From the NCBI GenBank assembly GCA_039804105.1, contig JBDRZU010000001.1, positions 352,001 to 416,000 on the forward strand: a stretch of 64,000 nt of DNA. Reading direction: 5' to 3'. The DNA is from a candidate division WOR-3 bacterium. GTDB lineage: Bacteria; Hydrothermota; 32-111. The translations under genes and the position numbers were made by a program. Shown here one piece after another: positions 6,301-53,107 of the stretch (the first letter of the stretch is position 1; every line of letters starts with the position of its first letter). Below the pieces are notes generated by a model that was not told the DNA's origin, made no database searches, and saw nothing but the letters and a program-made list of their open reading frames with translations.

Positions 6301-6326
6301 TTTTTCCTCCTTTTCTATATTTTATA

Positions 6327-6341
6327 ACAAGAAAAGTGCCA
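6327..6341 (-). promoter_or_regulatory. Putative sigma-54 (-24/-12) promoter for the 6300->1 operon
   Basis: Minus strand TGGCAC-TTTTC-TTGT; exact spacing of consensus TGGCAC-N5-TTGC with GT at -12; lies just upstream of the SD and start. Confidence 0.6.
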
Positions 6342-6476
6342 AATATAAATGTCACGAATTTATTATGTTATGATATTATGACAAGATTAGTTTTTTGTAA
6401 ATAGCAAACAATTTTGAGTTAAATATTATATTTTGAAGATTTAAGTTTTTGAAAAAAAGATTACAGAGTCATATAT

Positions 6477-7196
6477 TTATGACACTTTTAAAGAGTTTGA
6501 AACGAGATAACATTTTTCAAGTATAAAATTTTTTAAAAGTGGGTTTTTATCACACTCAAATTTTAATTCTTCAATATTACTTTTCAAATGTAATACTATT
6601 TTTTTTCTATTTTGAATAGAAGATAGTCTGTTAAAAATTTTATAAACAGAATCGATATTATTAACTATTGAAAATTCAATATAATATTTATCATTTTGAT
6701 CATTCTCAAAATCAAAATCAACCAGTTCATCTATTTTTAACCTTTTCAATTGTTTCAATATTTTTACATTCGGAATATCTGTTAAGAGTAAAATATTTTT
6801 TTCGTGATCTTCTGTTTTTAAAAAATTTTTAATTATAAAATAGAATTCTTCGATCTCTTTTAAAATACCATCAAGTTCTTCATAGTGGAAAGGTTTTTCA
6901 ATGAAATAATGAACCCCCAGCCCTTTCAAAGTATCTTTCAACATCTGGGTTGGACTTGCCGTAACTATAATAACTGTTAAAAAAAGATCGATTCTTTTTA
7001 TTTGATTAATGATATTTATTCCATAATTTGAACCTAAATATATATCAAGTATTAAAACATCAAGGTTTTCTATGTCATTTTGATTTATCATCAAAGGATG
7101 TTTATATAAAAGAAAAACCTCATGTTTTTTTAAAACAAGTATATCTCTCAACGCATTTGCAAAAGTTTCACTATCTTCAAGAATTCCTATTTTCAT
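6477..7196 (-). CDS. Response regulator (REC) with unrecognised C-terminal region
   Basis: ILEDS, ILDIYL, VTA, IEKPF receiver motifs; SD AAGGAG. Confidence 0.75.
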   Translation of the reverse strand: MKIGILEDSETFANALRDILVLKKHEVFLLYKHPLMINQNDIENLDVLILDIYLGSNYGINIINQIKRIDLFLTVIIVTASPTQMLKDTLKGLGVHYFIEKPFHYEELDGILKEIEEFYFIIKNFLKTEDHEKNILLLTDIPNVKILKQLKRLKIDELVDFDFENDQNDKYYIEFSIVNNIDSVYKIFNRLSSIQNRKKIVLHLKSNIEELKFECDKNPLLKNFILEKCYLVSNSLKVS

Positions 7197-37787: not shown

Positions 37788-38247
37788 TCTTGTCTCCTTT
37801 GTTCAGAAGTGAATTTAACTCATCAATGAATTCATTCATATCTTTGAATTGTCTGTAAACGGAAGCAAATCTAACATAAGATATTTCATCTATCTCTTTC
37901 AAGTGCTCCATAACTATCTCTCCAATGATTTTTGATTCCACCTCCTCAGATTCTTTTGCAAAAAGTTTTCTTTCAACATCTTCAACAATTTTGTTGATAC
38001 TTTCATTTGAAACCGGTCTTTTCCTGCATGCCGTTCTGATACCCTCTATCAGTTTATCCCTTGCATACGGTTCTCTTCTACCATCTCTTTTGATAACGAG
38101 TAATGGAGTTTTTTCAACATACTCATAGGTTGTGAACCTTTTTTTACATTGGAGACATTCCCTTCTTCTTCTAACACTCTGTCCATCTTTACTCGCTCTT
38201 GAATCTATAACTCTGTTCTCTTCAAAACCACAGTATGGGCATTTCAT
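37729..38247 (-). CDS. nrdR: Transcriptional repressor NrdR
   Basis: MKCPYC...VIDSR...RRRREC..C..RFTTYE, ATP-cone, YVRFASVYRQF. Confidence 0.97.
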   Translation of the reverse strand: MKCPYCGFEENRVIDSRASKDGQSVRRRRECLQCKKRFTTYEYVEKTPLLVIKRDGRREPYARDKLIEGIRTACRKRPVSNESINKIVEDVERKLFAKESEEVESKIIGEIVMEHLKEIDEISYVRFASVYRQFKDMNEFIDELNSLLNKGDKNGNKRDKHKRIKDDIKGKS

Positions 38248-38729
38248 ATTTTTTTAATTTTCTTTGTTGCATTCAACACCAAAGTGTTTGTACAGCTAAC
38301 AATATTTCCATTGTCATCTTTGCCATAATAAGTTTCAACCATCTTAGAAGAAGTGTAGTTTCCGGTTGTAAAAAGTGCATTATCTTCTATTATAGAACTT
38401 CCACCATCTATCCTTAATGTTCCAAACCAACTCTTAACTTCATTTTCATAATAATAATATGTTTTAACAATATTACCGTTAACTATAAGTTGTCCATAAC
38501 AACAACATCCTTCTGGTCCATAATTACCAAGTGTTACACCAATATTGTTCTTTTCTTTTATGGTAACATCAGCATAGAAAGACCAACCATTTGTTGCACC
38601 GTATGTTCCATCTGTTACCGGATTTGGAGAATAACTCAACTCAAGTTCAGCACTCTGAGGTAGAGGAAGTAACATACACGATGTAAAAAATAAAACGATT
38701 AAAATTGGGAAATAAAAGAATCTTTTCAT
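38244..38729 (-). CDS. Hypothetical lipoprotein
   Basis: ATG 38729 with SD AAGGAG; MKRFFYFPILIVLFFTSC lipobox; beta-rich mature region containing CCC. Confidence 0.7.
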   Translation of the reverse strand: MKRFFYFPILIVLFFTSCMLLPLPQSAELELSYSPNPVTDGTYGATNGWSFYADVTIKEKNNIGVTLGNYGPEGCCCYGQLIVNGNIVKTYYYYENEVKSWFGTLRIDGGSSIIEDNALFTTGNYTSSKMVETYYGKDDNGNIVSCTNTLVLNATKKIKKI

Positions 38730-38742
38730 AAAACTCCTTTTC

Positions 38743-38768
38743 AAAAAAGGGGAAATCAATTCCCCTTT
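38743..38768 (-). terminator. Intrinsic terminator after the aldehyde dehydrogenase (possibly bidirectional)
   Basis: Minus strand AAAGGGGAA-TTGAT-TTCCCC-TTTTTT hairpin plus U-tract, overlapping the ALDH stop codon. Confidence 0.7.
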
Positions 38769-40275: not shown

Positions 40276-41184
40276 CTATTTTAAGATTTTTTCAAGTTCT
40301 TTATCCTCTGGATATCTCTCTTCAAAAAGTGTAACAACTTCGGATCGATATCCTATTATCCTTCCAAAATCATCAACTTTCAAAATCAACTTATCAAAAC
40401 TTGATAATTCACCATATCCTTTCATTATTATAGTATGATTTTTAGGTGTTTCGATAGCATTCCTTAATCCAATCCCATCGAATCCACCAAAAATAATATC
40501 TATACCTTCCACATTTTCCGCAATAATTTTGTCATGTTCAAGACCAACAGATGTTAAACCAATTATAATTGAACATCTATTTTTTTTCAATATATCGACC
40601 ATCTCTTTCGCTACATCGATCTCCCTGCTTATGACATAATTCCCAGCAACATCTTCATCCATATTCAATAATGCATATTCAGATAATAAGCCAAATACAC
40701 CGATCCTGACTCCTTCCTTTTCAATAATCACATAACGTTCAGGTTGTAAATCTGAATTCAGAATCTTTAAGTTTGAAGAGATAAGTTTTGGATTAAAAAG
40801 TTTTACAGAGTTTAAGAAGAACTCAGGACCTGCGATTATCTCATCAATGCCGAGATTCACGATATCATAACCCATATGGTTAAAATACAAAGCAGGTTTG
40901 ATAAAATCAACAGAATCGTTATCAACACTTTTAAAGACAAAATTGCCAGAATCAAAGAGAAGAAATATTGCACCATTTTTACAAGCTTTTTCTCTTTCAT
41001 ATTTTATAGCTGTTGATAGTGAATATATACCACCAAGAACTGGAGGAAAATCAGGGTTGATAAAAGTTGCCTCCCTTCTATCAAGAACATTTCTTATATC
41101 GTTTGTATGTATTAATATGATATCTTTTGAAAAAATTGATAAAAAGAACAGAAAACCAAATAAAATGGAAAAACTCTTTTTCAT
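40276..41184 (-). CDS. Exported 5'-nucleotidase-like metallophosphoesterase domain, metal ligands degenerate
   Basis: Signal peptide; IHTNDIR, FDSGN, MGYD..NLGIDE, ISSNL, GVRIGVFGL, GIDIIFGG in calcineurin-like order; no C-terminal 5'-NT domain. Confidence 0.75.
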   Translation of the reverse strand: MKKSFSILFGFLFFLSIFSKDIILIHTNDIRNVLDRREATFINPDFPPVLGGIYSLSTAIKYEREKACKNGAIFLLFDSGNFVFKSVDNDSVDFIKPALYFNHMGYDIVNLGIDEIIAGPEFFLNSVKLFNPKLISSNLKILNSDLQPERYVIIEKEGVRIGVFGLLSEYALLNMDEDVAGNYVISREIDVAKEMVDILKKNRCSIIIGLTSVGLEHDKIIAENVEGIDIIFGGFDGIGLRNAIETPKNHTIIMKGYGELSSFDKLILKVDDFGRIIGYRSEVVTLFEERYPEDKELEKILK

Positions 41185-41193
41185 TTTCACCTC

Positions 41194-41760
41194 TTAAAAA
41201 ACTGTTATTTTATCAGCTGCTTTTTCAAGTATTTTCGAAAAATAATTTTCATATATATGAGCCAGAGTATCCGATTTGATGAGTATAGATGCTTCATTGT
41301 TTTTATCAAGTGCCTGGTAACTCCAGTTTGTTGAACCAACTATAACAAAAACTGAATCTATGATCAGCGCTTTTGCATGCAGTGTCGCTTCAGGATCATC
41401 ATAGTAAACTTTTATACCCCCACTTCTTAAAAAATCGCCAAGATCTTTGTTTCTAATGCTTTGATTCGGATTGAAACCTGACTGATCAAGAATGATCTTT
41501 ACATCAACACCCCTTTTAACAGCATCAAACAAAGATTCATAAATCTTTTGGTTCACACCTTCCTTTCTTTCAGGATAATAACCACCTTCAAGCATCATGA
41601 TATGAATCGTTTTTTTCGAATTTTTTATAAGTTTTAATAAATTTTTTGAATATTCTCTGTTGTTCATTGTCATTGCTCCCTCCGCAGGGAGAAAATTTAA
41701 ACTATCTGAAAACAAAAAGTAAAAAGAAAATATCGATAAGAAAAATATTAACCTTTTCAT
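41194..41760 (-). CDS. Exported single-HKD phospholipase D/Nuc-family protein (paralog 2)
   Basis: Signal peptide; HAKALIID......GSTN, NNE. Confidence 0.9.
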   Translation of the reverse strand: MKRLIFFLSIFSFYFLFSDSLNFLPAEGAMTMNNREYSKNLLKLIKNSKKTIHIMMLEGGYYPERKEGVNQKIYESLFDAVKRGVDVKIILDQSGFNPNQSIRNKDLGDFLRSGGIKVYYDDPEATLHAKALIIDSVFVIVGSTNWSYQALDKNNEASILIKSDTLAHIYENYFSKILEKAADKITVF

Positions 41761-41770
41761 AAATGTACTC

Positions 41771-42346
41771 CTAAGGTGTTATTGTTAAACTGTCAAATTT
41801 GAACTTATAAAGTTTTTCAAAAAAATCTTCATATTTTAAAGATATATCCCTTGATTTCACAGCAACAGCACATTCATTGTTTTTTGCAAGAGCATAAAAA
41901 CTCCAGTTTGTAGATCCAACGACAGTTATGGTTGAATCTATAACAACGAATTTTGCATGTGTTGTTATGTCGGGCATATCAAAGTATACTTCAACTCCAA
42001 ACTGTTTCATATATTTTACATACTCGTCGTTTTTAACTGATAATGAAGGATTCCATGAGGATTGATCAACGATCACAACAACCTTGACACCTCTTTTAAC
42101 TGCATTTATCAGAGAATTTTGGATATCTGTTGGTTCACCTTCAGGATAATCTGGATAATAACCAACCTGATATATAACAGCATGGATAGTTTTCTTCGAA
42201 TTGTCAAAAAGTTTTATAAGAGTTTTTGTATAGTCTCTGTCGTTCATCGGCAACACTCCATCAACAGGAAAAAGTTTTAACTCTTCCTGTGAAAAGATTG
42301 CTGAATAAATCATAAAAGGTAATAAAATTAAAATTATCTTTTTCAT
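41771..42346 (-). CDS. Exported single-HKD phospholipase D/Nuc-family protein (paralog 1)
   Basis: ATG 42346 with SD AGGAG; signal peptide; HAKFVVID......GSTN, NNE. Confidence 0.9.
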   Translation of the reverse strand: MKKIILILLPFMIYSAIFSQEELKLFPVDGVLPMNDRDYTKTLIKLFDNSKKTIHAVIYQVGYYPDYPEGEPTDIQNSLINAVKRGVKVVVIVDQSSWNPSLSVKNDEYVKYMKQFGVEVYFDMPDITTHAKFVVIDSTITVVGSTNWSFYALAKNNECAVAVKSRDISLKYEDFFEKLYKFKFDSLTITP

Positions 42347-42353
42347 AATTCTC

Positions 42354-43514
42354 CTAAAATTTGATTGAAACATCACCAACGAATTTTAAAACTCTATCGT
42401 TATAATAAATTCCTTCTTTTTCATAGTTGATATTTTTATAGTTAACAGCAAGAGTAAATTCTGTCATCCCTAATTTGTATGTAAGTCCTGTTGAAAAACC
42501 TATATCTACCAATCTGTTATCCTTTCTGTATGGTTCATACAGAAAACCATACATAAGATCAATATTTCTATTAAGTTCATGTGAAACACCAATATTATAT
42601 TTGATAAGATCGTTGTAATCTTTAAAATCACCGTTGAGTTCACTCCATCTTTCATAACTCAAAGAATAATAGAAAGTAGCTGGTGCAACATTCTTTGCTC
42701 TATATTCCAAACCAAAAGAGAATATGTTGGGGATTATATAGTAGACGGTCTCAGTCAAAAGATTTGTATCAGAAGCGATGATATCAGTTACTCTGTTAAC
42801 TGTAAGATATGTTCTAATGTTGTAAACAAAAGTTAAAATTACATCATCTTTATGGTTGTAGGAAATTCCGATATTTCCTCTGATCCCTGAGTAATTTTCT
42901 TTCGTGGATGATGTAGAGTCAATAAAAGAAGGATCTACAAAAAGTTTTGAGTAATCGGATGAACCATCTCCCTGCATTATTGAAAAATTTGTTCCCAAAG
43001 CTAATCCATAAAATCTGTAATTCAAACTCAAAAAGTATGTGTTTACATTTCCAATTCTGACATAACTTTCATCATAGAGTATAACATAGTTATCGTTTCT
43101 GTATATTTGTCGATAGGTATAATCATTGTTTATGTAATTCTCATAACCTAAATAGAGACCAAAATCTGATACGGGCATATATCCCATAATGTAAGCAGGT
43201 TCACCATAAAGAAAAGTGTTATCGTAAACATTCTTTTTCGCAACACTGTTTTCGTATGAATCAAAAATATACTTTGATCTTGTTTCCCTTGTTGATAATC
43301 CATAAAAACCGAGCGAAATCAAATAGTTTGTGGTTTTACATTCAACTGTTGGATTCAAAAGTGGATTGAAGAAGAAATCGTTGTTCCCCAGTGCTGCTCC
43401 TTTACTGAAAAGCGATGTGTTAAAATCTCCAAGTCCTGTATTGTATAATGAAACATATGAAAAAAGGTTAACACAAAAGAAACTCAGAAGAATAATATAA
43501 AAAAACTTTTTCAT
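42354..43514 (-). CDS. Outer-membrane beta-barrel protein (FadL/PorV-like)
   Basis: ATG 43514 with SD GGAGG; signal peptide, N-terminal GAALG...NP motif, aromatic-rich alternating strands, terminal VSIKF beta-signal. Confidence 0.65.
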   Translation of the reverse strand: MKKFFYIILLSFFCVNLFSYVSLYNTGLGDFNTSLFSKGAALGNNDFFFNPLLNPTVECKTTNYLISLGFYGLSTRETRSKYIFDSYENSVAKKNVYDNTFLYGEPAYIMGYMPVSDFGLYLGYENYINNDYTYRQIYRNDNYVILYDESYVRIGNVNTYFLSLNYRFYGLALGTNFSIMQGDGSSDYSKLFVDPSFIDSTSSTKENYSGIRGNIGISYNHKDDVILTFVYNIRTYLTVNRVTDIIASDTNLLTETVYYIIPNIFSFGLEYRAKNVAPATFYYSLSYERWSELNGDFKDYNDLIKYNIGVSHELNRNIDLMYGFLYEPYRKDNRLVDIGFSTGLTYKLGMTEFTLAVNYKNINYEKEGIYYNDRVLKFVGDVSIKF

Positions 43515-43522
43515 TTTTCCTC

Positions 43523-45943
43523 CTACCATCTGATATCTATCTGACAGGATATACTTAAAAGATTTCTATACTCATTAAAATCTGAGATTACCTGAAAATC
43601 AGAATCAATATAACGATACTTGTTGTTGTAAAGTGATATACCAGAAAATGTTGTCTCTTGGTTCTTCAACGATAATTTCATTCTCATTGAAAGAATGTTT
43701 GATATTCTATCAACAAAAGTTAAATACATTTTGTTTCCCTTCCCATAGAGAAAATCTATTCCATTATCTTCAAGTATCCATTGACTCATACCATCCGTAT
43801 TCCATGTAGCAAAACCACCAAGTAATGAAAGAAAATCTGTAAACTTTTTCTCATAGGAAATATTCACAAAAGAACCATCGATAAAATTGTTCTCAAGGTT
43901 ACCACCTGTTGTGAGTTTTACCATTCCATACCTTGCCTCAAAATTCAGATAATCACTGTTATCAAGAACTGTGAATACTCTTAAAGTTGTTTCGTTAGTT
44001 ATAGAATTTGTTGACACTATACTTTTATAAATGTTTTTCTCCTGAATTTTATGTTTCAACCTGATTCTCACTGGATAAACAGGCCTTAACTCAAGTTCAG
44101 TTTGAAATCTGTAGTTGAGTAAGTTATAGTCGAGTGTTCTCCATATATCAAGATATGTGTAGTTCAATGTCAGATTCGAAAGGATTCTATATCTTGTCTC
44201 CAGGTATATTCCTTCCTCAGGTTTAGGCCTTGGATCATCGAGTATAAATGTGAAAAGCGGATCTATCAATCTGTAGGTTTTTTCAAATTCTGTATCATCA
44301 TATCTTGATTGTTCATAAAATGGCCTTGAGTAGAAATTTGTATAACCAAGATCGTATCTTCTTAAAAGTCCTACAAAATAAAAATCATTGTAAACAACAC
44401 CGCTTTTCAAAACATAAGCATAACTGTTTTTCTGTTTTGCAATTTCATACTGTAAGAAAACATTTTTATATGCTGTCTGGAAATTCAACCCGTAAACACT
44501 CATTCGATCACCTTTAAATTCTGATATATACACAGGAATATTAAGATTATCTTTATCGTATGGTATATCAAGAGTTAAACTGTCCTGTTCGAAACTTCTA
44601 TCGAAGATCGAGTTGAAACCGGAAACACCAATCTGTGTTACAAGTGGGAGATTAAAAATTCCCCCAATATTGATAGCGAATTTCCCTCCAAAAGTTTTCT
44701 CCCTGTAAACATCTGTGAATTCATCGATGTAAGTTTTCGTTAAAAATGGAAGGTTTACGGTTGAATCTCTGTTTAAAACACCATCTCTGTTCTTATCTGA
44801 AACAAACAAAAGATAATACAATCTACTGAAATTACCTTCAAGAGCAACTCCCAAAAGATTGTTTGCAAAAGATTCGTTAACATCGACAAAAAGTCCAGAA
44901 CTCCTGTCATATGTTCTTGAACTTTTTTCATCGGTGTTATCAAAAATCACTCCTTCATTCAAAGTAACTCGATAATTTCCAAATATGAGATTTTTTATAA
45001 ATGGGATATCCCTTATCTGAAAATAACCTTTAAAACCTCTTCGTCCAAGTGTTGAATAATCTGTAAAGAGTGTTCCGAAAGAGAAGTTGTTCCCAAGATT
45101 AAATGTCAATTTGTTGTAAAGGTTTGCACCGATTTTTCTTTTCGAAACCTGTAAATATTCTCTTTCAATTCGACTTTTTAAAGAATCAACTTCTTCAGAA
45201 GTATAACCAGCTTTTAAAAGAGTATTTCTAAGGTTAGAGGAATCGGGATTTATAACCTCAAGTTGTTTTAATCTATAAGATAGTTCGTTTGCAAGTGAGG
45301 AAAAAGAGGAATAACCATAAGTGTCATCGTTTGAATATCTAACCTTTGTTCTGATATATCCAGAAAGATCAAAAAAATTTCTTTTGTGATCCTTGAAAGA
45401 GATATAATTTCTTAAATTCGAATAAGCATAATAGGTAAGGTTTGGTGTTCGTCTGAGATCACTTGGATACCTGTAAGTTCTTGTCTTTTTTGCCTGCATT
45501 ATAGCTTCAACATCAGTTAATCTCACACCGTAAATCTGTGAAATCTCTTCAAATCCCACTTTATTTATGTTGATCTTCTCAACGAGCAACCTTTCCCATA
45601 GATCTATCGCGCCCTTTGAAGGATTCTCTTCACTCGCCAACCTATCCTGCATCCTTAAAATATAGATCGAAGTTGAATCAAGAGTTGTATCAGGTTTTAT
45701 TTCAAACTTATCCTTTAATATTGAAAATATTTCATAATCGACACCATCTATTTCAATAAGTTCATAGATCGATTTTATCTCACCATGTTTTTTTAAATAC
45801 AATTTTATATTGTTTATAACCTCATCTGGTAAAAACAATGTATCGAGTACATCAGGATCAACATTGTTTATATCAATTTTCTCCTGTGAAAAAAGTATTG
45901 AAAAAATGGTGAGAGCCAAAAGAAAAATGTATATCCTTCTCAT
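43523..45943 (-). CDS. Helix-hairpin-helix (ComEA-like) x2 + large outer-membrane beta-barrel protein
   Basis: Signal peptide; KIDINN...HGEIKSIYELIEIDGV and KININK...EEISQIYGV...SDLRR HhH-like units; beta-strand-rich remainder ending QIDIRW. Confidence 0.75.
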   Translation of the reverse strand: MRRIYIFLLALTIFSILFSQEKIDINNVDPDVLDTLFLPDEVINNIKLYLKKHGEIKSIYELIEIDGVDYEIFSILKDKFEIKPDTTLDSTSIYILRMQDRLASEENPSKGAIDLWERLLVEKININKVGFEEISQIYGVRLTDVEAIMQAKKTRTYRYPSDLRRTPNLTYYAYSNLRNYISFKDHKRNFFDLSGYIRTKVRYSNDDTYGYSSFSSLANELSYRLKQLEVINPDSSNLRNTLLKAGYTSEEVDSLKSRIEREYLQVSKRKIGANLYNKLTFNLGNNFSFGTLFTDYSTLGRRGFKGYFQIRDIPFIKNLIFGNYRVTLNEGVIFDNTDEKSSRTYDRSSGLFVDVNESFANNLLGVALEGNFSRLYYLLFVSDKNRDGVLNRDSTVNLPFLTKTYIDEFTDVYREKTFGGKFAINIGGIFNLPLVTQIGVSGFNSIFDRSFEQDSLTLDIPYDKDNLNIPVYISEFKGDRMSVYGLNFQTAYKNVFLQYEIAKQKNSYAYVLKSGVVYNDFYFVGLLRRYDLGYTNFYSRPFYEQSRYDDTEFEKTYRLIDPLFTFILDDPRPKPEEGIYLETRYRILSNLTLNYTYLDIWRTLDYNLLNYRFQTELELRPVYPVRIRLKHKIQEKNIYKSIVSTNSITNETTLRVFTVLDNSDYLNFEARYGMVKLTTGGNLENNFIDGSFVNISYEKKFTDFLSLLGGFATWNTDGMSQWILEDNGIDFLYGKGNKMYLTFVDRISNILSMRMKLSLKNQETTFSGISLYNNKYRYIDSDFQVISDFNEYRNLLSISCQIDIRW

Positions 45944-45952
45944 AAAAATCTC

Positions 45953-46831
45953 CTAAAACGAATAGGACAGTTGGATATGGTTTCTTGAAGGAAGATTTAT
46001 CACGGTTGTGTATCCATAATCAATCGATATGTTTTTAATCTTTAATTCAAATCCTAGGCCAAGAGTTGCAGGATAATTTCTTACACCTGAAAATATTGTA
46101 AAAACATTTTTCACGATTTGGGACTTGAATGAAAAACCAAATGAAGTTGGTTCACCACTTGTTTTTGAAAGATCGAAATTGGTAGTTAAACTCTCATAAG
46201 GGCTGAATGTTAAACCACCGGAAACCTTTCTTGTTATATAGTATCTTTCGTTACTCATTGAGCCAACTATATATGTATCTGTTAGATTAGAAACAGATAA
46301 ACCAATAAACCATCTATCGTAAATCCTTCCTATTATACCAAGATCAGCAGTATAATATATGTTGTTGTTATCATCAATTCCTTCCATCTTTTGTTCAACA
46401 AAAAGAAAATTAATATTTGTCCCTACCATAATAACATCGTTAAACCCCATACCATAAGTTAACTGGACAACTCGTTCTGTTTGTAATCTTGTGTTTGTAG
46501 AAATGATAGAATCCATATTTGAATAATCTCCCAAAACAAAAAGTTCAGAATATTTTAAACCGAGATTACCATAGTTCGAATAGTATCCACCAGAAATTGA
46601 TACTGTGTGTATGAACCTGTAAAGGTTCTCATACGACACAGAAACCTGATACTTATCAAGACCAACGATTGAAGCAGGATTAACTGTTATATTTTCTATT
46701 CCTGTAAGCATTCCTGTTGTAGCGAAAGCCATACTTTTTGATTGAACATTTCCGGGTATATATTCAAACACAGCAAAACTATTCAGGAAAAGTAAAAATG
46801 AAATTATGAAAATTAAAACTTTCTTTTTCAT
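45953..46831 (-). CDS. PorP/SprF/PorV-like outer-membrane beta-barrel
   Basis: About 290 aa, signal peptide, SKSMA...VNPAS motif, IDYGY, terminal NHIQLSYSF. Confidence 0.7.
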   Translation of the reverse strand: MKKKVLIFIISFLLFLNSFAVFEYIPGNVQSKSMAFATTGMLTGIENITVNPASIVGLDKYQVSVSYENLYRFIHTVSISGGYYSNYGNLGLKYSELFVLGDYSNMDSIISTNTRLQTERVVQLTYGMGFNDVIMVGTNINFLFVEQKMEGIDDNNNIYYTADLGIIGRIYDRWFIGLSVSNLTDTYIVGSMSNERYYITRKVSGGLTFSPYESLTTNFDLSKTSGEPTSFGFSFKSQIVKNVFTIFSGVRNYPATLGLGFELKIKNISIDYGYTTVINLPSRNHIQLSYSF

Positions 46832-46843
46832 CTTTTACCTCAA

Positions 46844-48817
46844 CTATTTTAATTTTGTTGAAATAACAATTGGTTTTGTGATACTTGTAACATAACCATT
46901 TGGATCGATTTTGGATACATTGAGTATAAATATTCCTATGTTACACCTTGCTCCATTCTTGTCTTTACCATCCCATTGATATATATTTGAACCTGGCTGG
47001 TTTTCAGCGATAGTTTTTATATGTTTTCCATTTATATCATAGATTTTCAATGTGAATCGTTCAGTGTTCAAACCTTTTAATTCGATTCTCAAGACCTGTC
47101 CATAATCTGGTGAGAAAGGGTTTGGAAAGAGTGAAACAGAAAAGGTGGAATCTTCAGGTAAACTTAAAATGTTGATATCCGATCTTTTGCGAACAAGAAG
47201 TTGATAACCAGAAGTGTATGGAGATTGGTTGTCATATTGGCTTGCTATTCCTGTAACATCGAGGATATTACCCGGCATTATCGAACTCATAATATTATCA
47301 AGATAAAGACCTGTTGATTGCCCGATTCTCACATCAATAACAGAAAAGCCATTTTGCACCTGGAAATTCTTTCCTGTTCCAGCATCAACAGGATATGTTA
47401 GAATCTTTCCATATCTGATCTTCAAAAGTTTACCTTCAACATTCTCAGAAATCCCCTGAGAGTTCAAAAGTTCTTCAGGTTTAACGATCGCTATCGTATC
47501 ATTTATAATGTAAACATCAGTATCTGGAGAAGAATATTTGATTTCAGTTAATCCATTATATTCAGTCACTGTTCCTCTGACTATGACCTCTATACCTTCT
47601 TTAAATTTTTGATTAGCTGGATCTGAAGATGAATATATGTTGACACCACCAGTTTGATCCTGTATATAAAAACCAGTTGATGTTGCAGTTGGCGAGAAGA
47701 TACTTGATGATCCAGTTACGATTCCTTTTACTGAAACAACCTGTCCCACATATTTTGAATTGTATCCATCATTTGTCGATTGAACCTCAGAAATATTCAT
47801 AATATCAGCAAAAGGGATTTTTTTCATAACAAAAAAAGAAGAAACTGGCAGTAATTGTGTTTGAGTAACTCCCGTGTACATCTTTACAGTATCAACATTT
47901 GTAAAATAATAATCTTTGATATAAATCTTTATAGTATCCTTAAAAGAAATATCGTCGATGTTAATCGTTGTTGTATTTGAAGTCGTATCGAAAGTTATTT
48001 TTGTTGAATCAAAAGAAATTAAAGATGAATCACAAACAACTTTTATTGAATCTGTAAGAACCTTTTTGTTTAAAACAACTTTAAGATATTTTATCGTTCC
48101 ATAAACAGTATCAACATTAGGGATAAGATCCACTCTTATATCGTTATAAGAAAAATCGTTAAAAAATTTCGGATTAACACTTAAAACTCCACTTCCATCA
48201 AGTGTTTTTAAAACATCTTCGTTTCCATAAGGTCTCAATTCAAATTTACCGTTGTATTCATCCATACATCCTCTAACAAAAATGAAAGTATCGTTTAGAG
48301 ATTCAACTGTTACAGGATAGTTAAGATCCTCGTATACAGTTAAAGGCCCTGTGCCATCATCGATTTGCCATTCTCTCGCTGTTACTATCTGACTCACATA
48401 ACAGCCCTCTAACTGTACAAACATCCCCTCCCATTTTTCTTTTCCTGCCTCACCTGTTTTGAGTTTCACCGGGCCTGGGATCGTCCGTCCTTTTGCAAGT
48501 ACAGTTAGAACTGTTGGATTAGAAATCTCTGTTTTTCCATTGTATTCAACAACCTGTCCTGTAACACTTATTGAATCTCCAACTTCAACAGGAGCTGGAG
48601 GATTATACACAAGAATTCCATGCCACGGTAAAGTATCATCCTGTATATACACATTAACTCCAAAAACTCTTGTAACTATTCCTGAAACCGTAACAATTTG
48701 TCCAGCATAGGGAGAAGCACCAGAAATGTTTTCAGTATATTGAACATCATAGATCGTTAACGAAAAAGAGACGATAACAAGTAAAACGGTTGAAAAAAAT
48801 AAAAATAGATATTTCAT
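46844..48817 (-). CDS. Secreted tandem OB-fold (YhcR/ExeM-type) protein with C-terminal FlgD-Ig/T9SS-like sorting domain
   Basis: Two repeats I.DVQ...S.Y.GQ.V.V.GIVT...YIQD...V.G.V.EYNG.TEI...EG.(F/L); CTD PNPFSP...LKIYDING.HIKT...WDGKDKNG...GIFI. Confidence 0.8.
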   Translation of the reverse strand: MKYLFLFFSTVLLVIVSFSLTIYDVQYTENISGASPYAGQIVTVSGIVTRVFGVNVYIQDDTLPWHGILVYNPPAPVEVGDSISVTGQVVEYNGKTEISNPTVLTVLAKGRTIPGPVKLKTGEAGKEKWEGMFVQLEGCYVSQIVTAREWQIDDGTGPLTVYEDLNYPVTVESLNDTFIFVRGCMDEYNGKFELRPYGNEDVLKTLDGSGVLSVNPKFFNDFSYNDIRVDLIPNVDTVYGTIKYLKVVLNKKVLTDSIKVVCDSSLISFDSTKITFDTTSNTTTINIDDISFKDTIKIYIKDYYFTNVDTVKMYTGVTQTQLLPVSSFFVMKKIPFADIMNISEVQSTNDGYNSKYVGQVVSVKGIVTGSSSIFSPTATSTGFYIQDQTGGVNIYSSSDPANQKFKEGIEVIVRGTVTEYNGLTEIKYSSPDTDVYIINDTIAIVKPEELLNSQGISENVEGKLLKIRYGKILTYPVDAGTGKNFQVQNGFSVIDVRIGQSTGLYLDNIMSSIMPGNILDVTGIASQYDNQSPYTSGYQLLVRKRSDINILSLPEDSTFSVSLFPNPFSPDYGQVLRIELKGLNTERFTLKIYDINGKHIKTIAENQPGSNIYQWDGKDKNGARCNIGIFILNVSKIDPNGYVTSITKPIVISTKLK

Positions 48818-48818
48818 C

Positions 48819-50222
48819 TTACCTCCTGAGAATCCCTTTCCTTTTAGATGAAGGGAGAATATTTAATTTTTCTCTATATTTCGCGACAGTTCTTCGTGCG
48901 ATTTTTATCGAATGTTTTTCCTCAAGAATTTTTACAAGTTCTATATCAGAATAAGGATTGTTTGGATCCTCATTCTCTATCTCTTCTTTTATGATATTCA
49001 TAATTTTTTTGTTTGAAACCTCAAAACCTGTTGTGTTTTTAACACCCTTAGAAAAGAAAAATTTTAAAGGAAATATACCAGCAGGTGTTTCCATATATTT
49101 ATTTTCTATTGCTCTTGAAACTGTTGCTTCATGAATTCCTATATAACTTGAGATATCGTTCAAAGTAAGCGGTTTTAAAGAGGAAATTCCGTTGAAGAAA
49201 AAATCTTTTTGAATCTGAACGATCCTTTCTGATATTTTTAAAAGAGTATTATTTCTTCTGTATATACCTTCAAGTAAAAACAACGCTGCATTGAACTTGT
49301 TTTTCAAAAATTTTTTTTCTTCCTGTGAAAGATTTTCGTTATTTTTGTACATTTCAAAATAACTTTTACTCAGATGAACTTCAGGGAAAGATTGTAGATT
49401 TAAAGAGACATATAGTTCTTCACCTCTCTGTTCCACTATAATATCCGGAATAATGTAATCTGAACTTTTTCCCCAACTTCCATTCGCCGGTTTGGGATTC
49501 AAAGTTCTGATCGATTCAAGAACTTTTTCAAGTTTGTTTCTTGTGATTTTTAATTTGTTTTCAATAATATATAATTTGTTTGTTAAAAACTCTTCATAAA
49601 AATCTTTTATAATCCTATATTCCAATGAATCCATTTTGTTTTGATTTTCAAGTTGAGTTAGAAGAACTTCCTGAACACTTCTACTACCGATACCTACTGG
49701 ATCAAAAAATTTATATTTTGAATGGACATATTCAACTTTTTCAATTGGAATGTTTAAATTTTCTGCGATCTGGGACAAAGATACTTCCAAAAGCCCATCA
49801 TCCGAAAGTGAAAAGGTTATCTCTTCAGCAATTTTTATTTCATCTGGATCATCAAAAAAAATATGTGATTGTGTCAAAAGGTAATCCTGCAAACTTTCAG
49901 GTTCTTCAACATTTGTTAATGGATCAAACTCTTCTCTTTCTCTATCATATCTTTCAGAAGGTAAAGATGCTCTTTTCCAATCATCATGAAAAAAATATTC
50001 ATAGTCAATTTCATCCTTCAAAGGTAGTTCAGGTTCAACCTCCTCATATGTAACATCTTCTTCTTCAAGAACATCATCGGCCAAAAATGGATTCTGTTCA
50101 ATCTCGTTCGTTATAACCTGTTGCAACTCGAGAAGAGGAAGTTGTAAAATTTTTACAAGAGTCAACAACTGTGGTGTTAATTTTATTTCCTGTCTTAAAG
50201 AGGTCTCAAGTTTCTGTTTCAT
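48819..50222 (-). CDS. rpoN: RNA polymerase sigma-54 factor
   Basis: Region I LTPQL..LQLPLLEL, FDPVGIG, HEATVSR, RpoN box ARRTVAKYRE. Confidence 0.97.
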   Translation of the reverse strand: MKQKLETSLRQEIKLTPQLLTLVKILQLPLLELQQVITNEIEQNPFLADDVLEEEDVTYEEVEPELPLKDEIDYEYFFHDDWKRASLPSERYDREREEFDPLTNVEEPESLQDYLLTQSHIFFDDPDEIKIAEEITFSLSDDGLLEVSLSQIAENLNIPIEKVEYVHSKYKFFDPVGIGSRSVQEVLLTQLENQNKMDSLEYRIIKDFYEEFLTNKLYIIENKLKITRNKLEKVLESIRTLNPKPANGSWGKSSDYIIPDIIVEQRGEELYVSLNLQSFPEVHLSKSYFEMYKNNENLSQEEKKFLKNKFNAALFLLEGIYRRNNTLLKISERIVQIQKDFFFNGISSLKPLTLNDISSYIGIHEATVSRAIENKYMETPAGIFPLKFFFSKGVKNTTGFEVSNKKIMNIIKEEIENEDPNNPYSDIELVKILEEKHSIKIARRTVAKYREKLNILPSSKRKGILRR

Positions 50223-50938
50223 AATCTGAATTTTTCTCCAAGATAGAGTTCTCTTGCCTTCTCATCGTTAATTAACTGGTGAGTATCCCCGGATAAGAGA
50301 ATCTTTCCTTCATATATTATATGTGCTACATCTACGATTTCAAGTGTTTCTCTTACATTATGATCGGTTATTAAAATTCCGATACCTTCTTTTGCAAGAT
50401 CAGTTACCATATTTTGTATTTCTTCTTTAACCTTTGGATCTATCCCTGTAAAAGGTTCATCAAGAAGTAAGAATTTTGGATTTGAAGTCAAAGCCCTTGC
50501 GATTTCGACCCTCCTTCTTTCTCCACCCGAAAGTTTGTAAGCAGGGAGATTTTTCAAATGTGATACTTTAAATTTTTCAAGGAGTTCATCAGCCCTTTTC
50601 TCATTTTTTTTTCTATCTGGAAACAACATTTCAAGTATAGCCAAAAGATTTTCTTTTACAGTTAGTTGCCTAAAAATTGAACTCTCCTGTGGAAGATATC
50701 CTATTCCCAGCCTTGCTCTTTTATACATTGGAAGATCTGTTATATCCTTTTCATCAAGAAAAATTTTCCCTGATGATACAGGAACAACTCCAACCATCAT
50801 ATAAAAAGTTGTTGTTTTACCAGCTCCATTTGGACCGAGAAGTCCAATAATTTTACCATTTTCAACTTCAAGAGACAGTTGATCCACAACTTTCCTTTTT
50901 CCGTAGTATTTAACAAGATTTTCACATCTGAGTATCAT
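50219..50938 (-). CDS. lptB: LPS export ABC transporter ATPase LptB
   Basis: GPNGAGKTTTFYM, LPMYKRARLGIGYLPQE, LSGGERRR, ITDHNVRETL, YLGEKF. Confidence 0.96.
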   Translation of the reverse strand: MILRCENLVKYYGKRKVVDQLSLEVENGKIIGLLGPNGAGKTTTFYMMVGVVPVSSGKIFLDEKDITDLPMYKRARLGIGYLPQESSIFRQLTVKENLLAILEMLFPDRKKNEKRADELLEKFKVSHLKNLPAYKLSGGERRRVEIARALTSNPKFLLLDEPFTGIDPKVKEEIQNMVTDLAKEGIGILITDHNVRETLEIVDVAHIIYEGKILLSGDTHQLINDEKARELYLGEKFRL

Positions 50939-51833
50939 TTTGTTCCTTTTTCAGAAGTTCACTTTCTTTGATCCTGAAAAAATTAAGGATATCAACTTTT
51001 GAAGATTTAAAAGATCCATCGACTGAATCGCATTTTATTCTTATTATATTATCACTTTCATTTTCAAATACAATATTGTTTTTTCCAACCATTCTCTGTA
51101 AACTATCATTTTTAAAATAAAAAACAAAAGTATCACCTTGAAAGAACGATCTGTTTGAGTATATCTCTCCCCTTTTTATCGTTTTAAAAAAAGAATTTTT
51201 TCTATCATAGATAACAGAGTCAGATTTGATCTTAAAACTATCATTGAATATCTCAACATCGTAAGAAAAAATGTTCATAGAATCTTTATCATCAATAAGA
51301 AGATTTTGAGATTTTATAGTATAGGAAGAATCATTTTTTTGAAGTATAGAATTCCCTTTTATAAAAGTTTTTTCAGTGTTTTTGAAATATTCAATATGGT
51401 TACCCAAAATTTTAAAATTTTCCTGAACATTTTCAAATAAAGGTGTTCCTGTAAAAACTAATAGTGAATCGTCAAGAAAAATTTTGAGTGTTTCACTTTC
51501 GATTAAAAATCTTTTTTCTTTTTCTGTTTTTTGAAAATTTATCAGAAATTTTTTTTCTTTTATAAAATAAATACCCGATTTTGCAAATATTTTAATAGAA
51601 TCATCTCTTTTTAGAAGAAAACTTTTAGGGAAGTATATCAAGGAATCTTTTTTCAAAATGTAAGATGAATCGGTGATAAGGTTATATTCATTAGATTTGA
51701 AATCAACATTTTTGAAAAAAAAGATTGTATCACCATTTATTGATGCTTTTTCAGAATAAAGAGTATAAGAGTATAAATATTCAATGAAAGATAAAAACAG
51801 GATTAATAAAAAAATTTTAATTTTTTTCATCAT
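50922..51833 (-). CDS. LptA/OstA-like beta-jellyroll protein
   Basis: Signal peptide, repetitive beta pattern (FTGTP, IKSDS, GDT); sits between lptC and lptB. Confidence 0.65.
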   Translation of the reverse strand: MMKKIKIFLLILFLSFIEYLYSYTLYSEKASINGDTIFFFKNVDFKSNEYNLITDSSYILKKDSLIYFPKSFLLKRDDSIKIFAKSGIYFIKEKKFLINFQKTEKEKRFLIESETLKIFLDDSLLVFTGTPLFENVQENFKILGNHIEYFKNTEKTFIKGNSILQKNDSSYTIKSQNLLIDDKDSMNIFSYDVEIFNDSFKIKSDSVIYDRKNSFFKTIKRGEIYSNRSFFQGDTFVFYFKNDSLQRMVGKNNIVFENESDNIIRIKCDSVDGSFKSSKVDILNFFRIKESELLKKEQNDTQM

Positions 51834-52302
51834 AAATTAATACTGGTGAAAGAAAAATCGTTTTTTTGAAATTATCAAAACACACGAATCCTTTTGTTAA
51901 CATTTTATCACTCTTTTTCTCTATCATGATTGAGTCCTCGGTTCTTAAAGTATCAGATTCAATATTGTAATAAAGAAATCTTGTATACAACACCATAGAA
52001 TCCGAAAATAAAACTTTAACATTTCCAAAATATTCGATCGACTTTTCATAAACATAAGAACTATCAGCAAAAATTTTTACATTTTCTCCATCCTCTCTTA
52101 TATACTCAATATTCTTCAGAACATACATTTTTAAAGAATCAATATAATAACCGGTATCAGATTTTAATGAATAAATTTTCACACTATCTTCATAATAATC
52201 GGATTTGTAATCTATAACAATATCTTTTTGAACGATTGGAACTTTTTCAATATCTTCTCTGCTACAGAAAATAAGAAAAAGAAAAAAACTAACAGTTATC
52301 AT
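51817..52302 (-). CDS. lptC: LPS export protein LptC-like
   Basis: IFADS...GNVKV...LYTRFLYY...IEK...GF pattern and position; start uncertain (52302 or 52329). Confidence 0.65.
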   Translation of the reverse strand: MITVSFFLFLIFCSREDIEKVPIVQKDIVIDYKSDYYEDSVKIYSLKSDTGYYIDSLKMYVLKNIEYIREDGENVKIFADSSYVYEKSIEYFGNVKVLFSDSMVLYTRFLYYNIESDTLRTEDSIMIEKKSDKMLTKGFVCFDNFKKTIFLSPVLIYDEKN

Positions 52303-53107
52303 CCTGAAAAATTTTACTGAAGAAATCATATTGAAATATGTCCTTTCGAATCTGGTTTTCAAAAAACTGGTATATTTTTTCAAGTGTAAACCCAGATGCA
52401 TCATAAAAATAAATTCTATGTTTTCCTTTTTCAAACCTTGTGATCATCAAAACAGGAGTTAGTTTAAACTTTCCGATGATGTTGAACCATCCGGATGGCA
52501 ATTCCTGTTCAATACCAAGAAAATTTATTTTTTTCGTTGTGAGATTGTTCAACCTCTGATCGATCATAAATGACAAAATCCTTCCTTCCTCTATGTGTTT
52601 TCTATAAACCTCAGTTGGAGAACTTTTTTCTATAAGCTTTATCCCATATTTTACTCTGATAGAGTCAATATAACTATAAAACCATTCGTCTCTTTTTTGA
52701 TAAACAATGGAGATATTGTATCCTTTTCTCTGCAACACTTGTCCCGCTACTTCCCAATTGCCATAATGCACAGAGATTAAGGATATCTTTTGATTTTTTC
52801 GTTTTAAATTTTCAAGTATTTCTAAATTTTCTATCTCGAATCTTCTTTCATCTGGATCATGAAACATAAGATATAAATTTTCAACAAGAAAAGCTGCACT
52901 GTTGAAGTATATCTTTATTGAAAATTTTATACGATACTTCTTCAAATTCTCTTTTACTCTCTTTTTACTTTTTATTCCAAAATTGTAAAACAATACAGAA
53001 ACCAATTTTGATATGATTATCAATATCTTTAAAGGCAAATATTTTAAAAGAAAAAGTGAAACTTTTACTAGTGGATCATTTTTTGAACTTTTCATACAGA
53101 TTCTCAA
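52289..53107 (-). CDS. LpxL/HtrB-family lipid A-type acyltransferase
   Basis: VHYGNWE, MIDQ, FLG, Q+Y near C-terminus; adjacent to lpt genes. Confidence 0.8.
   Translation of the reverse strand: MRICMKSSKNDPLVKVSLFLLKYLPLKILIIISKLVSVLFYNFGIKSKKRVKENLKKYRIKFSIKIYFNSAAFLVENLYLMFHDPDERRFEIENLEILENLKRKNQKISLISVHYGNWEVAGQVLQRKGYNISIVYQKRDEWFYSYIDSIRVKYGIKLIEKSSPTEVYRKHIEEGRILSFMIDQRLNNLTTKKINFLGIEQELPSGWFNIIGKFKLTPVLMITRFEKGKHRIYFYDASGFTLEKIYQFFENQIRKDIFQYDFFSKIFQDDNC

Follow-up and report, generated by a model that had tools for sequence, protein, structure and literature searches.

A conserved envelope gene cluster in a WOR-3 bacterium is a candidate nucleic-acid utilization system with a putative new type of outer-membrane conduit

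Introduction

In sediments, digesters and hot springs, DNA outside cells is a large store of phosphorus, nitrogen and carbon, and its passage across an outer membrane is, to our knowledge, known only for the pilus- and secretin-based competence machinery and, since 2025, for the TonB-dependent Ddb transporters. Could bacteria bring nucleic acid through the outer membrane by another route, and feed on it? The question is raised by seven consecutive genes, here called g1 to g7, in a 64,000-nucleotide (nt) stretch of the genome of a candidate division WOR-3 bacterium (assembly GCA_039804105.1, contig JBDRZU010000001.1, positions 352,001 to 416,000; the whole stretch is called the window, and feature coordinates are window positions). 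An initial annotation had read these genes as an undescribed, pilus-independent system that captures extracellular nucleic acid, imports it and processes it with periplasmic nucleases. We find that the underlying observation holds and that the interpretation is supported in part, with DNA binding, transport direction and the substrate of the phospholipase D (PLD)-type enzymes all inferred from sequence.

We regard the cluster as real and conserved, an undescribed variant among systems for nucleic-acid utilization or uptake, with what looks like a new type of outer-membrane conduit and a function that family assignments make plausible. We put at roughly 55% the probability that g1 to g7 capture, import and break down extracellular nucleic acid, mainly for nutrition; the substrate, the topology, the direction of transport, the proposed ratchet and the site at which the PLD enzymes act we infer from what is known of the families concerned. 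Taken as a whole, the set is best explained as the form that an envelope module shared across the FCB (Fibrobacteres-Chlorobi-Bacteroidetes) group takes in the TA06 lineage.

A conserved cluster of exported proteins

Inspection of the open reading frames (ORFs), their translations and their starts bore out the description of seven consecutive genes that each have a Shine-Dalgarno sequence and a signal peptide. The ORFs run head to tail on the minus strand over 40276-48817 (Table 1), an AGGAG-type motif lies 5-10 nt upstream of the best start of each, and all seven translations open with a basic and then hydrophobic signal sequence. The placement of these motifs moves three starts later (g4 to 43514, g5 to 42346 and g7 to 41184), and with the shifted starts the gaps from g1 to g7 measure 12, 9, 8, 7, 10 and 3 nt. 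Such tight packing is not distinctive, since 44 of the 55 neighbouring same-strand ORF pairs in the window lie at most 15 nt apart or overlap; the cluster itself runs into its neighbours, with rpoN ending 1 nt ahead of g1 and an aldehyde dehydrogenase gene 12 nt past g7.

What sets the cluster above chance is synteny amid unrelated flanks. We gathered 16 loci from relatives and, by scanning species-representative genomes, another 73, and followed gene order with tblastn, then with profile hidden Markov models made from the matches, on 47 full-length species-level loci, restricting the counts to loci with enough flank; these are related genomes, and the counts are not counts of independent events. 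The g3 gene is present in 29 of the 40 sampled genomes of the phylum. Across lineages labelled TA06/WOR-3, Acetofilamentum, Edwardsbacteria, Fermentibacteria/Hyd24-12, Fibrobacteraceae and Cloacimonadota, the order g1, g2, g3, g4, an optional PLD gene and g7 recurs, and the flanking genes are unrelated between lineages. Near g3 we found g2 in 37/39 loci, g1 in 31/36, g4 in 34/38 and g7 in 32/36, with all four partners together in 25/32; g2 lies immediately upstream of g3 in 37/39, or 38 counting L067, whose miss is an artefact of the search span. Departures from the pattern include loci with g1-g2-g3 only (L048 to L050), loci with no g1 directly upstream (L046, L052, L054 and L055), one without g7 (L038) and an Edwardsbacteria-labelled metagenome-assembled genome (MAG; L044) in which g3 is spread over three ORFs with its partners absent nearby, which points to gene decay or to faulty assembly. 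Conservation of this kind at g3 identities of 24-39% between lineages nonetheless exceeds chance by far. The earlier view that these families are unlikely to have come together by accident is thus upheld by synteny, although not by spacing, and the gene-neighbourhood comparison that it called for finds them conserved together, as one unit, in several candidate phyla.

A large barrel with built-in helix-hairpin-helix modules

The candidate conduit is g3. Pfam recognizes HHH_3, a helix-hairpin-helix (HhH) family, in this protein at 35 bits (cut-off 27), and a scan of the whole genome resolves two ComEA-type stretches of it (Table 1). An AlphaFold2 model (predicted local distance difference test, pLDDT, 81.7; predicted template-modelling score 0.78) contains 24 long strands and places the barrel at about residues 193-805. 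Foldseek returned only generic large barrels for this model (MtrB, E 2e-7; FimD; PapC; template-modelling score, TM, <=0.33) and no specific structural relative, and a Pfam scan gave no Omp85 or SprA match. Homologues are nonetheless numerous, with 123 cluster representatives at E<=1e-30 in a profile search, and carry public names such as 'hypothetical', 'helix-hairpin-helix domain-containing' and 'Competence protein ComEA (Modular protein)'. Outer-membrane barrels usually end in an aromatic residue, as do g2 (F), g3 (W) and g4 (F); Pfam and NCBIfam scans of these three proteins found no Plug, TonB-dependent receptor or CarboxypepD_reg match.

ComEA itself is small, either soluble or anchored in the membrane, and acts together with a pilus and a secretin. 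The likeness of g3 to it lies in the two HHH_3-type modules, at an end expected to face the periplasm; the difference is that g3 carries these modules and a barrel of ~24 strands in one 806-aa chain.

The gene that follows, g4, has no NCBIfam match and, like g2 and g7, no Pfam match even at E 10; one of its orthologues gives Toluene_X at 24.8 bits, below the cut-off of 29.7. Its AlphaFold2 model (pLDDT 85.4) is matched best by Foldseek to chain 9hiv_F of a Bacteroides thetaiotaomicron BAM entry titled BamADG (E 5e-18, TM 0.72), with 9n2d_B at TM 0.73, Flavobacterium and Porphyromonas chains among the BAM entries (9hiv, 9n2d and 9hjm: TM 0.68-0.73) and Escherichia coli FadL 1t16_A at E 8.7e-13 and TM about 0.67. 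When residues 185-806 of g3 and 24-391 of g4 were predicted as a complex, each with its own alignment and with three controls, the pair scored 0.66 against 0.01 for the best control, with at least 89% of contacts shared by three runs and a partner pLDDT of at least 79. Of 157 solved complexes 116 attain the mark applied, as do 2 of 215 mismatched pairs, a calibration that is only approximate for g3-g4 because our own alignments were supplied. Confident contacts on g3 fall on its first strand (residues 201-205), the helices that follow (212-223) and its last strands (743-802). The model predicts that g4 docks on the seam of the g3 barrel, rather than acting alone; it supports binding between the two and does not show it.

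Two-barrel assemblies of this general kind have precedents in PorV-SprA and BamG-BamA (PMC12578637): the fold of g4 is the same, it is predicted to lie tight against a larger barrel, and g2 is PorV/PorQ/PorP-like. BamG, a FadL homologue of the BAM complex, binds the back of BamA (PMC12578637), whereas g4 is predicted to sit on the first and last strands of g3; further differences from PorV and BamG are that g3 has no Pfam match to Omp85 or SprA and that nothing in our results points to a role of g4 in protein export or barrel assembly.

A candidate surface binder and its proposed anchor

What would bring nucleic acid to such a conduit? We propose g1 as a candidate surface nucleic-acid binder and g2 as the candidate anchor or partner of its C-terminal domain. 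The OB modules of g1, at about residues 20-200 and 340-548 on either side of an Ig-like middle, are internal repeats of one another (33% identity over 138 residues, E 3e-9); Pfam assigns the OB-fold family tRNA_anti-codon at 32 bits, and the NCBIfam model ExeM_NucH matches at E 8.7e-19 over its N-terminal part only. The Pfam and NCBIfam scans found no nuclease domain in g1, and phmmer against the PDB gave only a marginal match to CcmE (E 0.017). Among 20 orthologues, 11 carry an OB family and 7 match DUF5689 at E<=0.001 (best E 1.9e-13), the orthologue at L036 reaching 43.4 bits for DUF5689. The two Fibrobacteraceae loci have in the g1 slot proteins of 782-795 aa with lamin-tail domains and no clear OB matches.

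The C-terminal domain of g1 (about residues 563-657) matches FlgD_ig at 28.4 bits (cut-off 27) and TIGR04183 at E 0.0055 and 16.7 bits, below the cut-off of 23; FlgD_ig recurs in 7 of the 20 orthologues and Por_Secre_tail in 3. Its presumed partner g2 matches the NCBIfam model PorV_fam at E 6.7e-9 and 35.8 bits, below the cut-off of 90, and is the weakest of the six PorV-family matches in the genome, while a Fibrobacteraceae orthologue exceeds the PorP_SprF cut-off (26.3 bits against 22.3). A route like that of the type IX secretion system (T9SS) is plausible for g1, because the genome (1.81 Mb in 2 contigs, 85% complete) holds, besides these PorV-family members, an SprA_N match in an 1816-aa frame and nine Peptidase_C25 (gingipain/PorU-type) genes of ~900-1500 aa.

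Exchange of phosphoesterases behind the barrels

The enzymes encoded behind the barrels vary between lineages. Both g5 and g6 match PLDc_2 (E 9e-23 and 2.2e-26) and retain an intact HxK(x)4D(x)6GSxN motif (THAKFVVIDSTITVVGSTNWS in g5, LHAKALIIDSVFVIVGSTNWS in g6), with 44% identity between them. The best NCBIfam matches of g5 are DrmC and NucT, both under cut-off; the NucT models score 30-53 bits against cut-offs of 211-351, and g6 matches in the PDB the endonuclease Nuc (1byr, E 1.1e-8) and NucT (6ehi, E 1.2e-5). The two proteins, putative nucleases, resemble Nuc and NucT in size, in their single intact HKD motif and in their signal peptide, and differ from them in lying below the equivalog cut-offs and in being tandem diverged paralogues; NucT of Helicobacter reportedly has a role in purine salvage.

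The last gene, g7, gives weak NCBIfam matches to UshA-like and SoxB models, no Metallophos match even at E 10, and an alignment to the 5'-nucleotidase chain 6xuq_A at E 6e-11. Along that alignment HTNDVH has become HTNDIR, DAGD has become DSGN, GNHEF has become GIDEI and GGHS has become GGFD, where the canonical 5'-nucleotidase motifs HTNDxH, GD, GNH(D/E) and GHxH are kept in full-length g7 orthologues; the protein ends after ~304 residues, without the C-terminal nucleotidase domain (5_nucleotid_C). Because g7 is truncated and its metal-binding motif residues are substituted, its nucleotidase role appears lost, and by known chemistry a protein of this sequence cannot release nucleosides, contrary to the first reading of the locus; the domain calls made there stand for every family, with this one reduced to a remnant. 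Identity of g7 within its family is 50-77%, similar to that of the neighbouring genes, which suggests that a non-catalytic role has been retained and that g7 is likely a preserved pseudo-enzyme.

Elsewhere the same slot holds a complete enzyme. Full-length 5'-nucleotidases, 504-601 aa long, fill the g7 position in 21 loci; the canonical motifs are kept in 10/10 aligned, and 5_nucleotid_C is present in 7/7 scanned with Pfam. In 12 loci, including the family of the window, the protein is short (288-308 aa) and its motifs are degenerate. Between g4 and g7, 12/12 loci with a short g7 and 0/21 with a long one have one or two PLD genes, an association that may reflect one or few events. These PLD genes were gained in a single lineage, and the ancestral cluster had no nuclease. 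Nuclease processing, proposed as part of the system, would accordingly concern this lineage and not the ancestral set. Of the 36 loci whose downstream sequence extends for 4 kb or more, 33 have a phosphoesterase of some kind in the slot behind the barrels (32 with g7, and L048 with a secreted alkaline phosphatase). This replacement of a nucleotidase by PLDs, with the dead enzyme kept, is a clean natural case of module turnover in such a machine.

Relation to known systems

Deletion of ddbABCDEF abolished DNA depletion by B. thetaiotaomicron (PMC12478041), and the ddb locus is the nearest in logic to g1-g7: as described, it encodes exported proteins, among them a surface DUF5689-type predicted DNA binder, a barrel of the outer membrane and nucleases that are secreted or periplasmic, and it serves the use of exogenous DNA (PMC12478041). 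Its conduit is the TonB-dependent transporter DdbC, where the cluster has an HhH-fused barrel and a FadL-like partner, and its surface proteins are lipoproteins by signal-peptide class, where g1 has a T9SS-type C-terminal domain (PMC12478041). The nucleases are likened by role, the cluster here having two candidate nucleases, the Nuc-type PLDs.

In Riemerella anatipestifer, the DUF5689 protein RA0C_RS04920 is essential for transformation, and together with RA0C_RS04915 and RA0C_RS02645 it makes up a pilus-independent set of a DUF5689 protein, a barrel and an HhH protein for DNA uptake (PMC8459023). There the HhH protein is separate, predicted to be periplasmic and encoded under a distant locus tag, and the barrel is TonB-dependent-receptor-like (PMC8459023); here HhH is fused to a barrel that, compared by description, is unrelated, and the cluster is tied to degradative enzymes. 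The Riemerella HhH domain occupies residues 236-301 and has homologues in Firmicutes and Proteobacteria (PMC8459023), a description that fits an ordinary ComEA-like protein, probably rather than a homologue of g3. A DNA-utilization locus with a DUF5689 binder is thus not a new idea, and Ddb and the Riemerella genes are partly related to the cluster, which shares with them a candidate DUF5689-like binder and the logic, not the conduit.

Sets of the Shewanella ExeM/UshA type resemble the cluster in combining ExeM/NucH-type OB and lamin-tail modules with a secreted 5'-nucleotidase (PMC8289736); they differ in that g1 has no nuclease domain. That study of marine-sediment DNA degraders reports predicted periplasmic nucleotidases in 4 TA06 MAGs, and its text has 0 occurrences of helix-hairpin-helix or ComEA proteins (PMC8289736). 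We found no published description of the cluster in the literature on DUF5689, Riemerella, ComEA-like barrels or TA06/Fermentibacteria (supplements not covered); 'undescribed' therefore fits the cluster itself, with the qualification that the partly related Ddb and Riemerella loci have been characterized.

The claim of pilus independence calls for a similar division. Among g1-g7 and their flanks there is no pilin, secretin or pilus ATPase gene, and the claim holds for the cluster. The genome as a whole encodes ComEC, a single secretin (on the other contig) and a separate 117-aa HHH_3 ComEA-like protein, so a conventional competence route also exists in it; its four Plug-domain genes all lie away from the cluster.

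A proposed mechanism and its alternatives

How might these parts work together? In the mechanism we propose, g1 would be secreted and, by way of its T9SS-type C-terminal domain, presented at the cell surface, with g2 as the probable holder, and its tandem OB/DUF5689-like modules would bind nucleic acid outside the cell. This polymer, whole or as fragments, would cross the outer membrane through the ~24-strand barrel of g3, with g4 docked on its seam, and the periplasmic HhH modules of g3 would grip the incoming strand and stop it from sliding back, which would make TonB or a pilus unnecessary. Periplasmic phosphoesterases would then degrade the nucleic acid, the enzyme in most lineages being a full 5'-nucleotidase; the present lineage would have gained one or two Nuc-type PLDs (g5 and g6, possibly as a heterodimer), and its nucleotidase would have decayed to the inactive g7, kept for a non-catalytic role. 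The chief purpose would be the scavenging of nutrients and phosphate, with a supply of DNA to ComEC for transformation possible as a secondary use.

A bolder form of this proposal, which we offer tentatively and at less than even odds, holds that g3 and g4 with g2 form an unrecognized nucleic-acid translocon, ancestral to much of the FCB group: a ~24-strand barrel with a built-in ComEA-type ratchet and a FadL-fold partner that holds or gates its seam, operating without TonB, pilus or secretin, and accompanied by phosphoesterases that have been exchanged over time, such that a PLD pair displaced the nucleotidase and its remnant became a structural subunit. If true, this would be a third, passive, self-ratcheting and widespread route for nucleic acid, one that would explain how many uncultured phyla of the FCB group feed on it; outer-membrane conduits would gain a new class, and metagenomes could be searched for DNA scavengers with these genes as markers. 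The question is open to experiment, since genetically tractable Bacteroides carry homologues of the barrel.

The case for nucleic acid as the substrate rests on the two HHH_3 modules of g3, on the OB and DUF5689 matches of g1 and its orthologues and on the lamin-tail proteins in the g1 slot of Fibrobacteraceae; a substrate that is either nucleic acid or another phosphoester is indicated more broadly by the 5'-nucleotidases of 21 loci, the Nuc/NucT-like PLDs and the alkaline phosphatase of L048. The ABC binding protein found next to the cluster in 17/47 loci (below) fits uptake of the products of breakdown.

Several observations weigh against it. Single-HKD PLDs include lipid-acting enzymes, and the PDB matches of g6 include the mitochondrial cardiolipin hydrolase (4ggj, 9lkx). 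The match of g1 itself to DUF5689, although it spans 4-217 of the 217 model positions, stays under the cut-off (23.9 bits against 28.6), and the DNA binding of DdbD, a member of that family, is predicted from structure only (PMC12478041). A phmmer search of the PDB with the N-terminal region of g3 found no match, solved ComEA included; the fold of two of the three barrels is that of FadL/PorV, known for hydrophobic substrates or protein shuttling; and the g3-g4 prediction could owe its pass to memory of solved two-barrel complexes such as BamA-BamG and SprA-PorV. The g1-g7 set of other lineages' loci contains no nuclease gene, and because the ancestral cluster likewise had none, the cluster's own enzymes could in most lineages process nucleotides only; in the genome of the window, at its 85% completeness, there is no 5_nucleotid_C match anywhere and g7 is dead. 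The synteny counts, coming from related genomes, overstate the independence of the loci. Finally, the ABC binding protein linked to the cluster (below) has as its best named match the glycerol-3-phosphate binder UgpB, far under cut-off, and patatin-like phospholipase genes lie near the cluster in 2 of 8 neighbour-scanned loci (L043 and L046).

These last points lead to the best-surviving alternative, which we still regard as unlikely: the same machine working on another anionic phosphoester (teichoic-acid-type poly(glycerol phosphate), glycerophosphodiesters or lysophospholipids), in which organophosphate would be scavenged, the PLDs would act as phosphodiesterases or phospholipases, and the products would enter through UgpB-like ABC import. 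An orthologous UgpB-like ABC binding protein adjoins the cluster in 17/47 loci, on its upstream side in Fermentibacteria and on its downstream side in L041 and L043; its two permeases are adjacent in 4 loci, and the genome of the window has these genes elsewhere. The patatin genes, the alkaline phosphatase of L048, the FadL fold of two barrels and the cardiolipin hydrolases among the PLD matches all suit such a substrate. The binding protein matches UgpB at E down to 6e-51, but at 103-173 bits against a cut-off of 411, which establishes its broad family only; patatin is confined to the 2 scanned loci, HHH_3 and the OB, DUF5689 and lamin-tail families are tied to nucleic acids, and the ancestral enzyme is a 5'-nucleotidase with a nucleotide-binding C-terminal domain.

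The barrels might instead serve to export and anchor g1, as a T9SS accessory or attachment module, with g1 tethering DNA or some other polymer in adhesion or biofilm formation, or with DNA being exported. The C-terminal domain of g1, the PorV/PorQ/PorP-like g2 and the SprA_N and 9 Peptidase_C25 genes of the genome are what such a display module would be expected to have, and FadL-like barrels do sit on larger barrels in secretion and assembly machines, as PorV and BamG show (PMC12578637). We see only an outside chance for this reading, which leaves unexplained both the HhH modules fused to the barrel on the periplasmic side and the constant company of periplasmic-type phosphoesterases, and the g2-g3 pair occurs without any g1 in 12 distant loci.

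A dedicated gate for natural transformation, in which g1-g4 would pass long DNA to the periplasm for ComEC while the PLDs trim or convert it, seems to us doubtful, with odds slightly poorer again. Pilus-free transformation in Riemerella needs a DUF5689 protein, a barrel and an HhH protein (PMC8459023), ComEC is encoded in the genome, and ComEA-type modules act in DNA uptake in Vibrio cholerae (PMC3879209). The cluster, however, consistently keeps company with degradative phosphoesterases, and in 17/47 loci with an ABC importer, rather than with comEC, comF or dprA, and for the usual route the genome already has its secretin and separate small ComEA-like protein. That the genes are mere neighbours in a compact genome, with no joint function, is an idea which the dense packing of the window and the contiguity with rpoN and the aldehyde dehydrogenase gene might invite, and which the synteny counts, the gene order kept where flanks differ and a g3-g4 model that passes against controls at 0.01 leave with almost no credit.

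Distant homologues and genomic surroundings

Table 1. Coordinates of the cluster genes and of other features (window positions unless a locus or contig is named)
Feature	Position	Strand	Description
g1	46844-48817	-	exported, 657 aa; tandem OB modules and T9SS-type C-terminal domain
g2	45953-46831	-	292 aa, PorV/PorQ/PorP-like outer-membrane barrel, C-terminus …SYSF
g3	43523-45943	-	806 aa: signal peptide, two HhH modules, helical linker, large barrel, C-terminus …DIRW
HHH_3 stretches of g3	45707-45886; 45401-45580		ComEA-type
g4	42354-43514	-	FadL/BamG-fold outer-membrane barrel; 386 aa (391 aa from 43529); C-terminus …SIKF
g5	41771-42346	-	exported single-HKD PLD/Nuc-type protein, 191 aa from Shine-Dalgarno ATG; listed ORF starts at TTG 42379
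g6	41194-41760	-	exported single-HKD PLD/Nuc-type protein, 188 aa, paralogue of g5
g7	40276-41190	-	exported 5'-nucleotidase remnant, 302-304 aa; N-terminal metallophosphatase domain only
lptC-like, lptA, lptB, rpoN	48819-52434	-	same strand as cluster, directly upstream of g1
171-aa ORF	38244-38759		between aldehyde dehydrogenase gene and nrdR; family identity 44-59%
Terminator-like hairpin	38750-38765	-	after aldehyde dehydrogenase gene / start of 171-aa ORF
Third single-HKD PLD gene	C2:36134-36532		202-aa frame
Alkaline phosphatase homologue	C2:33007-33837		
Fibrobacteraceae g1-slot proteins	L073:5652-8000; L074:5612-7999		lamin-tail domains
Split g3	L044:8893-11390		three ORFs
Lone g3 homologues	L084:8803-10866; L078:8311-10419; L083:8410-10437		675-702 aa; gut Bacteroides/Phocaeicola MAGs
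UgpB-like gene	L041:12586-15573; L043:13970-16957		
UgpB-like gene	L056, L058, L059, L061, L063, L066-L072, L075: ~5500-7170		
UgpB-like gene	L051, L060: upstream		
RecJ-like DHH/DHHA1 genes	L046:14036-15679; L052:14008-15627; L057:7048-8694; L051:16325-17872; L060:16464-17951		

Beyond the full clusters, weaker g3 homologues of 613-702 aa carry one HHH_3 module. Among 26 distant loci, 12 have the g2-g3 pair alone (Cloacimonadota, Dysgonomonadaceae, Carboxylicivirga and others) and 14 a lone barrel (Bacteroides, Phocaeicola and other Bacteroidales). At the three gut loci listed in Table 1 (L084, L078 and L083), g2, g4 and the nucleotidase went undetected. A 258-aa ORF follows the g3 homologue at all three and is a radical-SAM protein in both that were scanned (L084 and L078); at L084 a DUF4294 gene lies upstream of the g3 homologue on the opposite strand. 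At the Fibrobacteraceae locus L073, an extra gene for a 446-aa unknown protein stands between g4 and the nucleotidase.

RecJ-like genes follow the 5'-nucleotidase or lie close to it in 5 related loci; having no signal peptide, they were not counted as members of the envelope system. In the genome of the window there are seven PLDc_2 matches, among them a third small single-HKD gene, which lies ~2.3 kb from an alkaline phosphatase homologue; C2:33007-36532 may be a second phosphoester-scavenging spot.

The flanks of g1-g7 bear out the statement that no integrase, toxin or defence gene adjoins the cluster: upstream are lptC/A/B and rpoN, and downstream the aldehyde dehydrogenase gene, the 171-aa unknown, which gave zero Pfam matches even at E 10, nrdR and purC. 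A role in lipopolysaccharide transport, which the lptC/A/B-rpoN adjacency might suggest, was rejected, as these neighbours and the aldehyde dehydrogenase gene are restricted to the window's own family and differ in other lineages. The terminator-like hairpin of Table 1 is the sole intergenic site of its kind on the minus strand; the window holds 87 promoter-like sites against a chance expectation of 76.2 +/- 8.7 and 8 terminator-like sites against 5.3 +/- 3.0, counts that say little. The window is AT-rich (~30% G+C), nearly all of its ORFs of at least 120 aa lie on the minus strand, and its GC skew is negative throughout.

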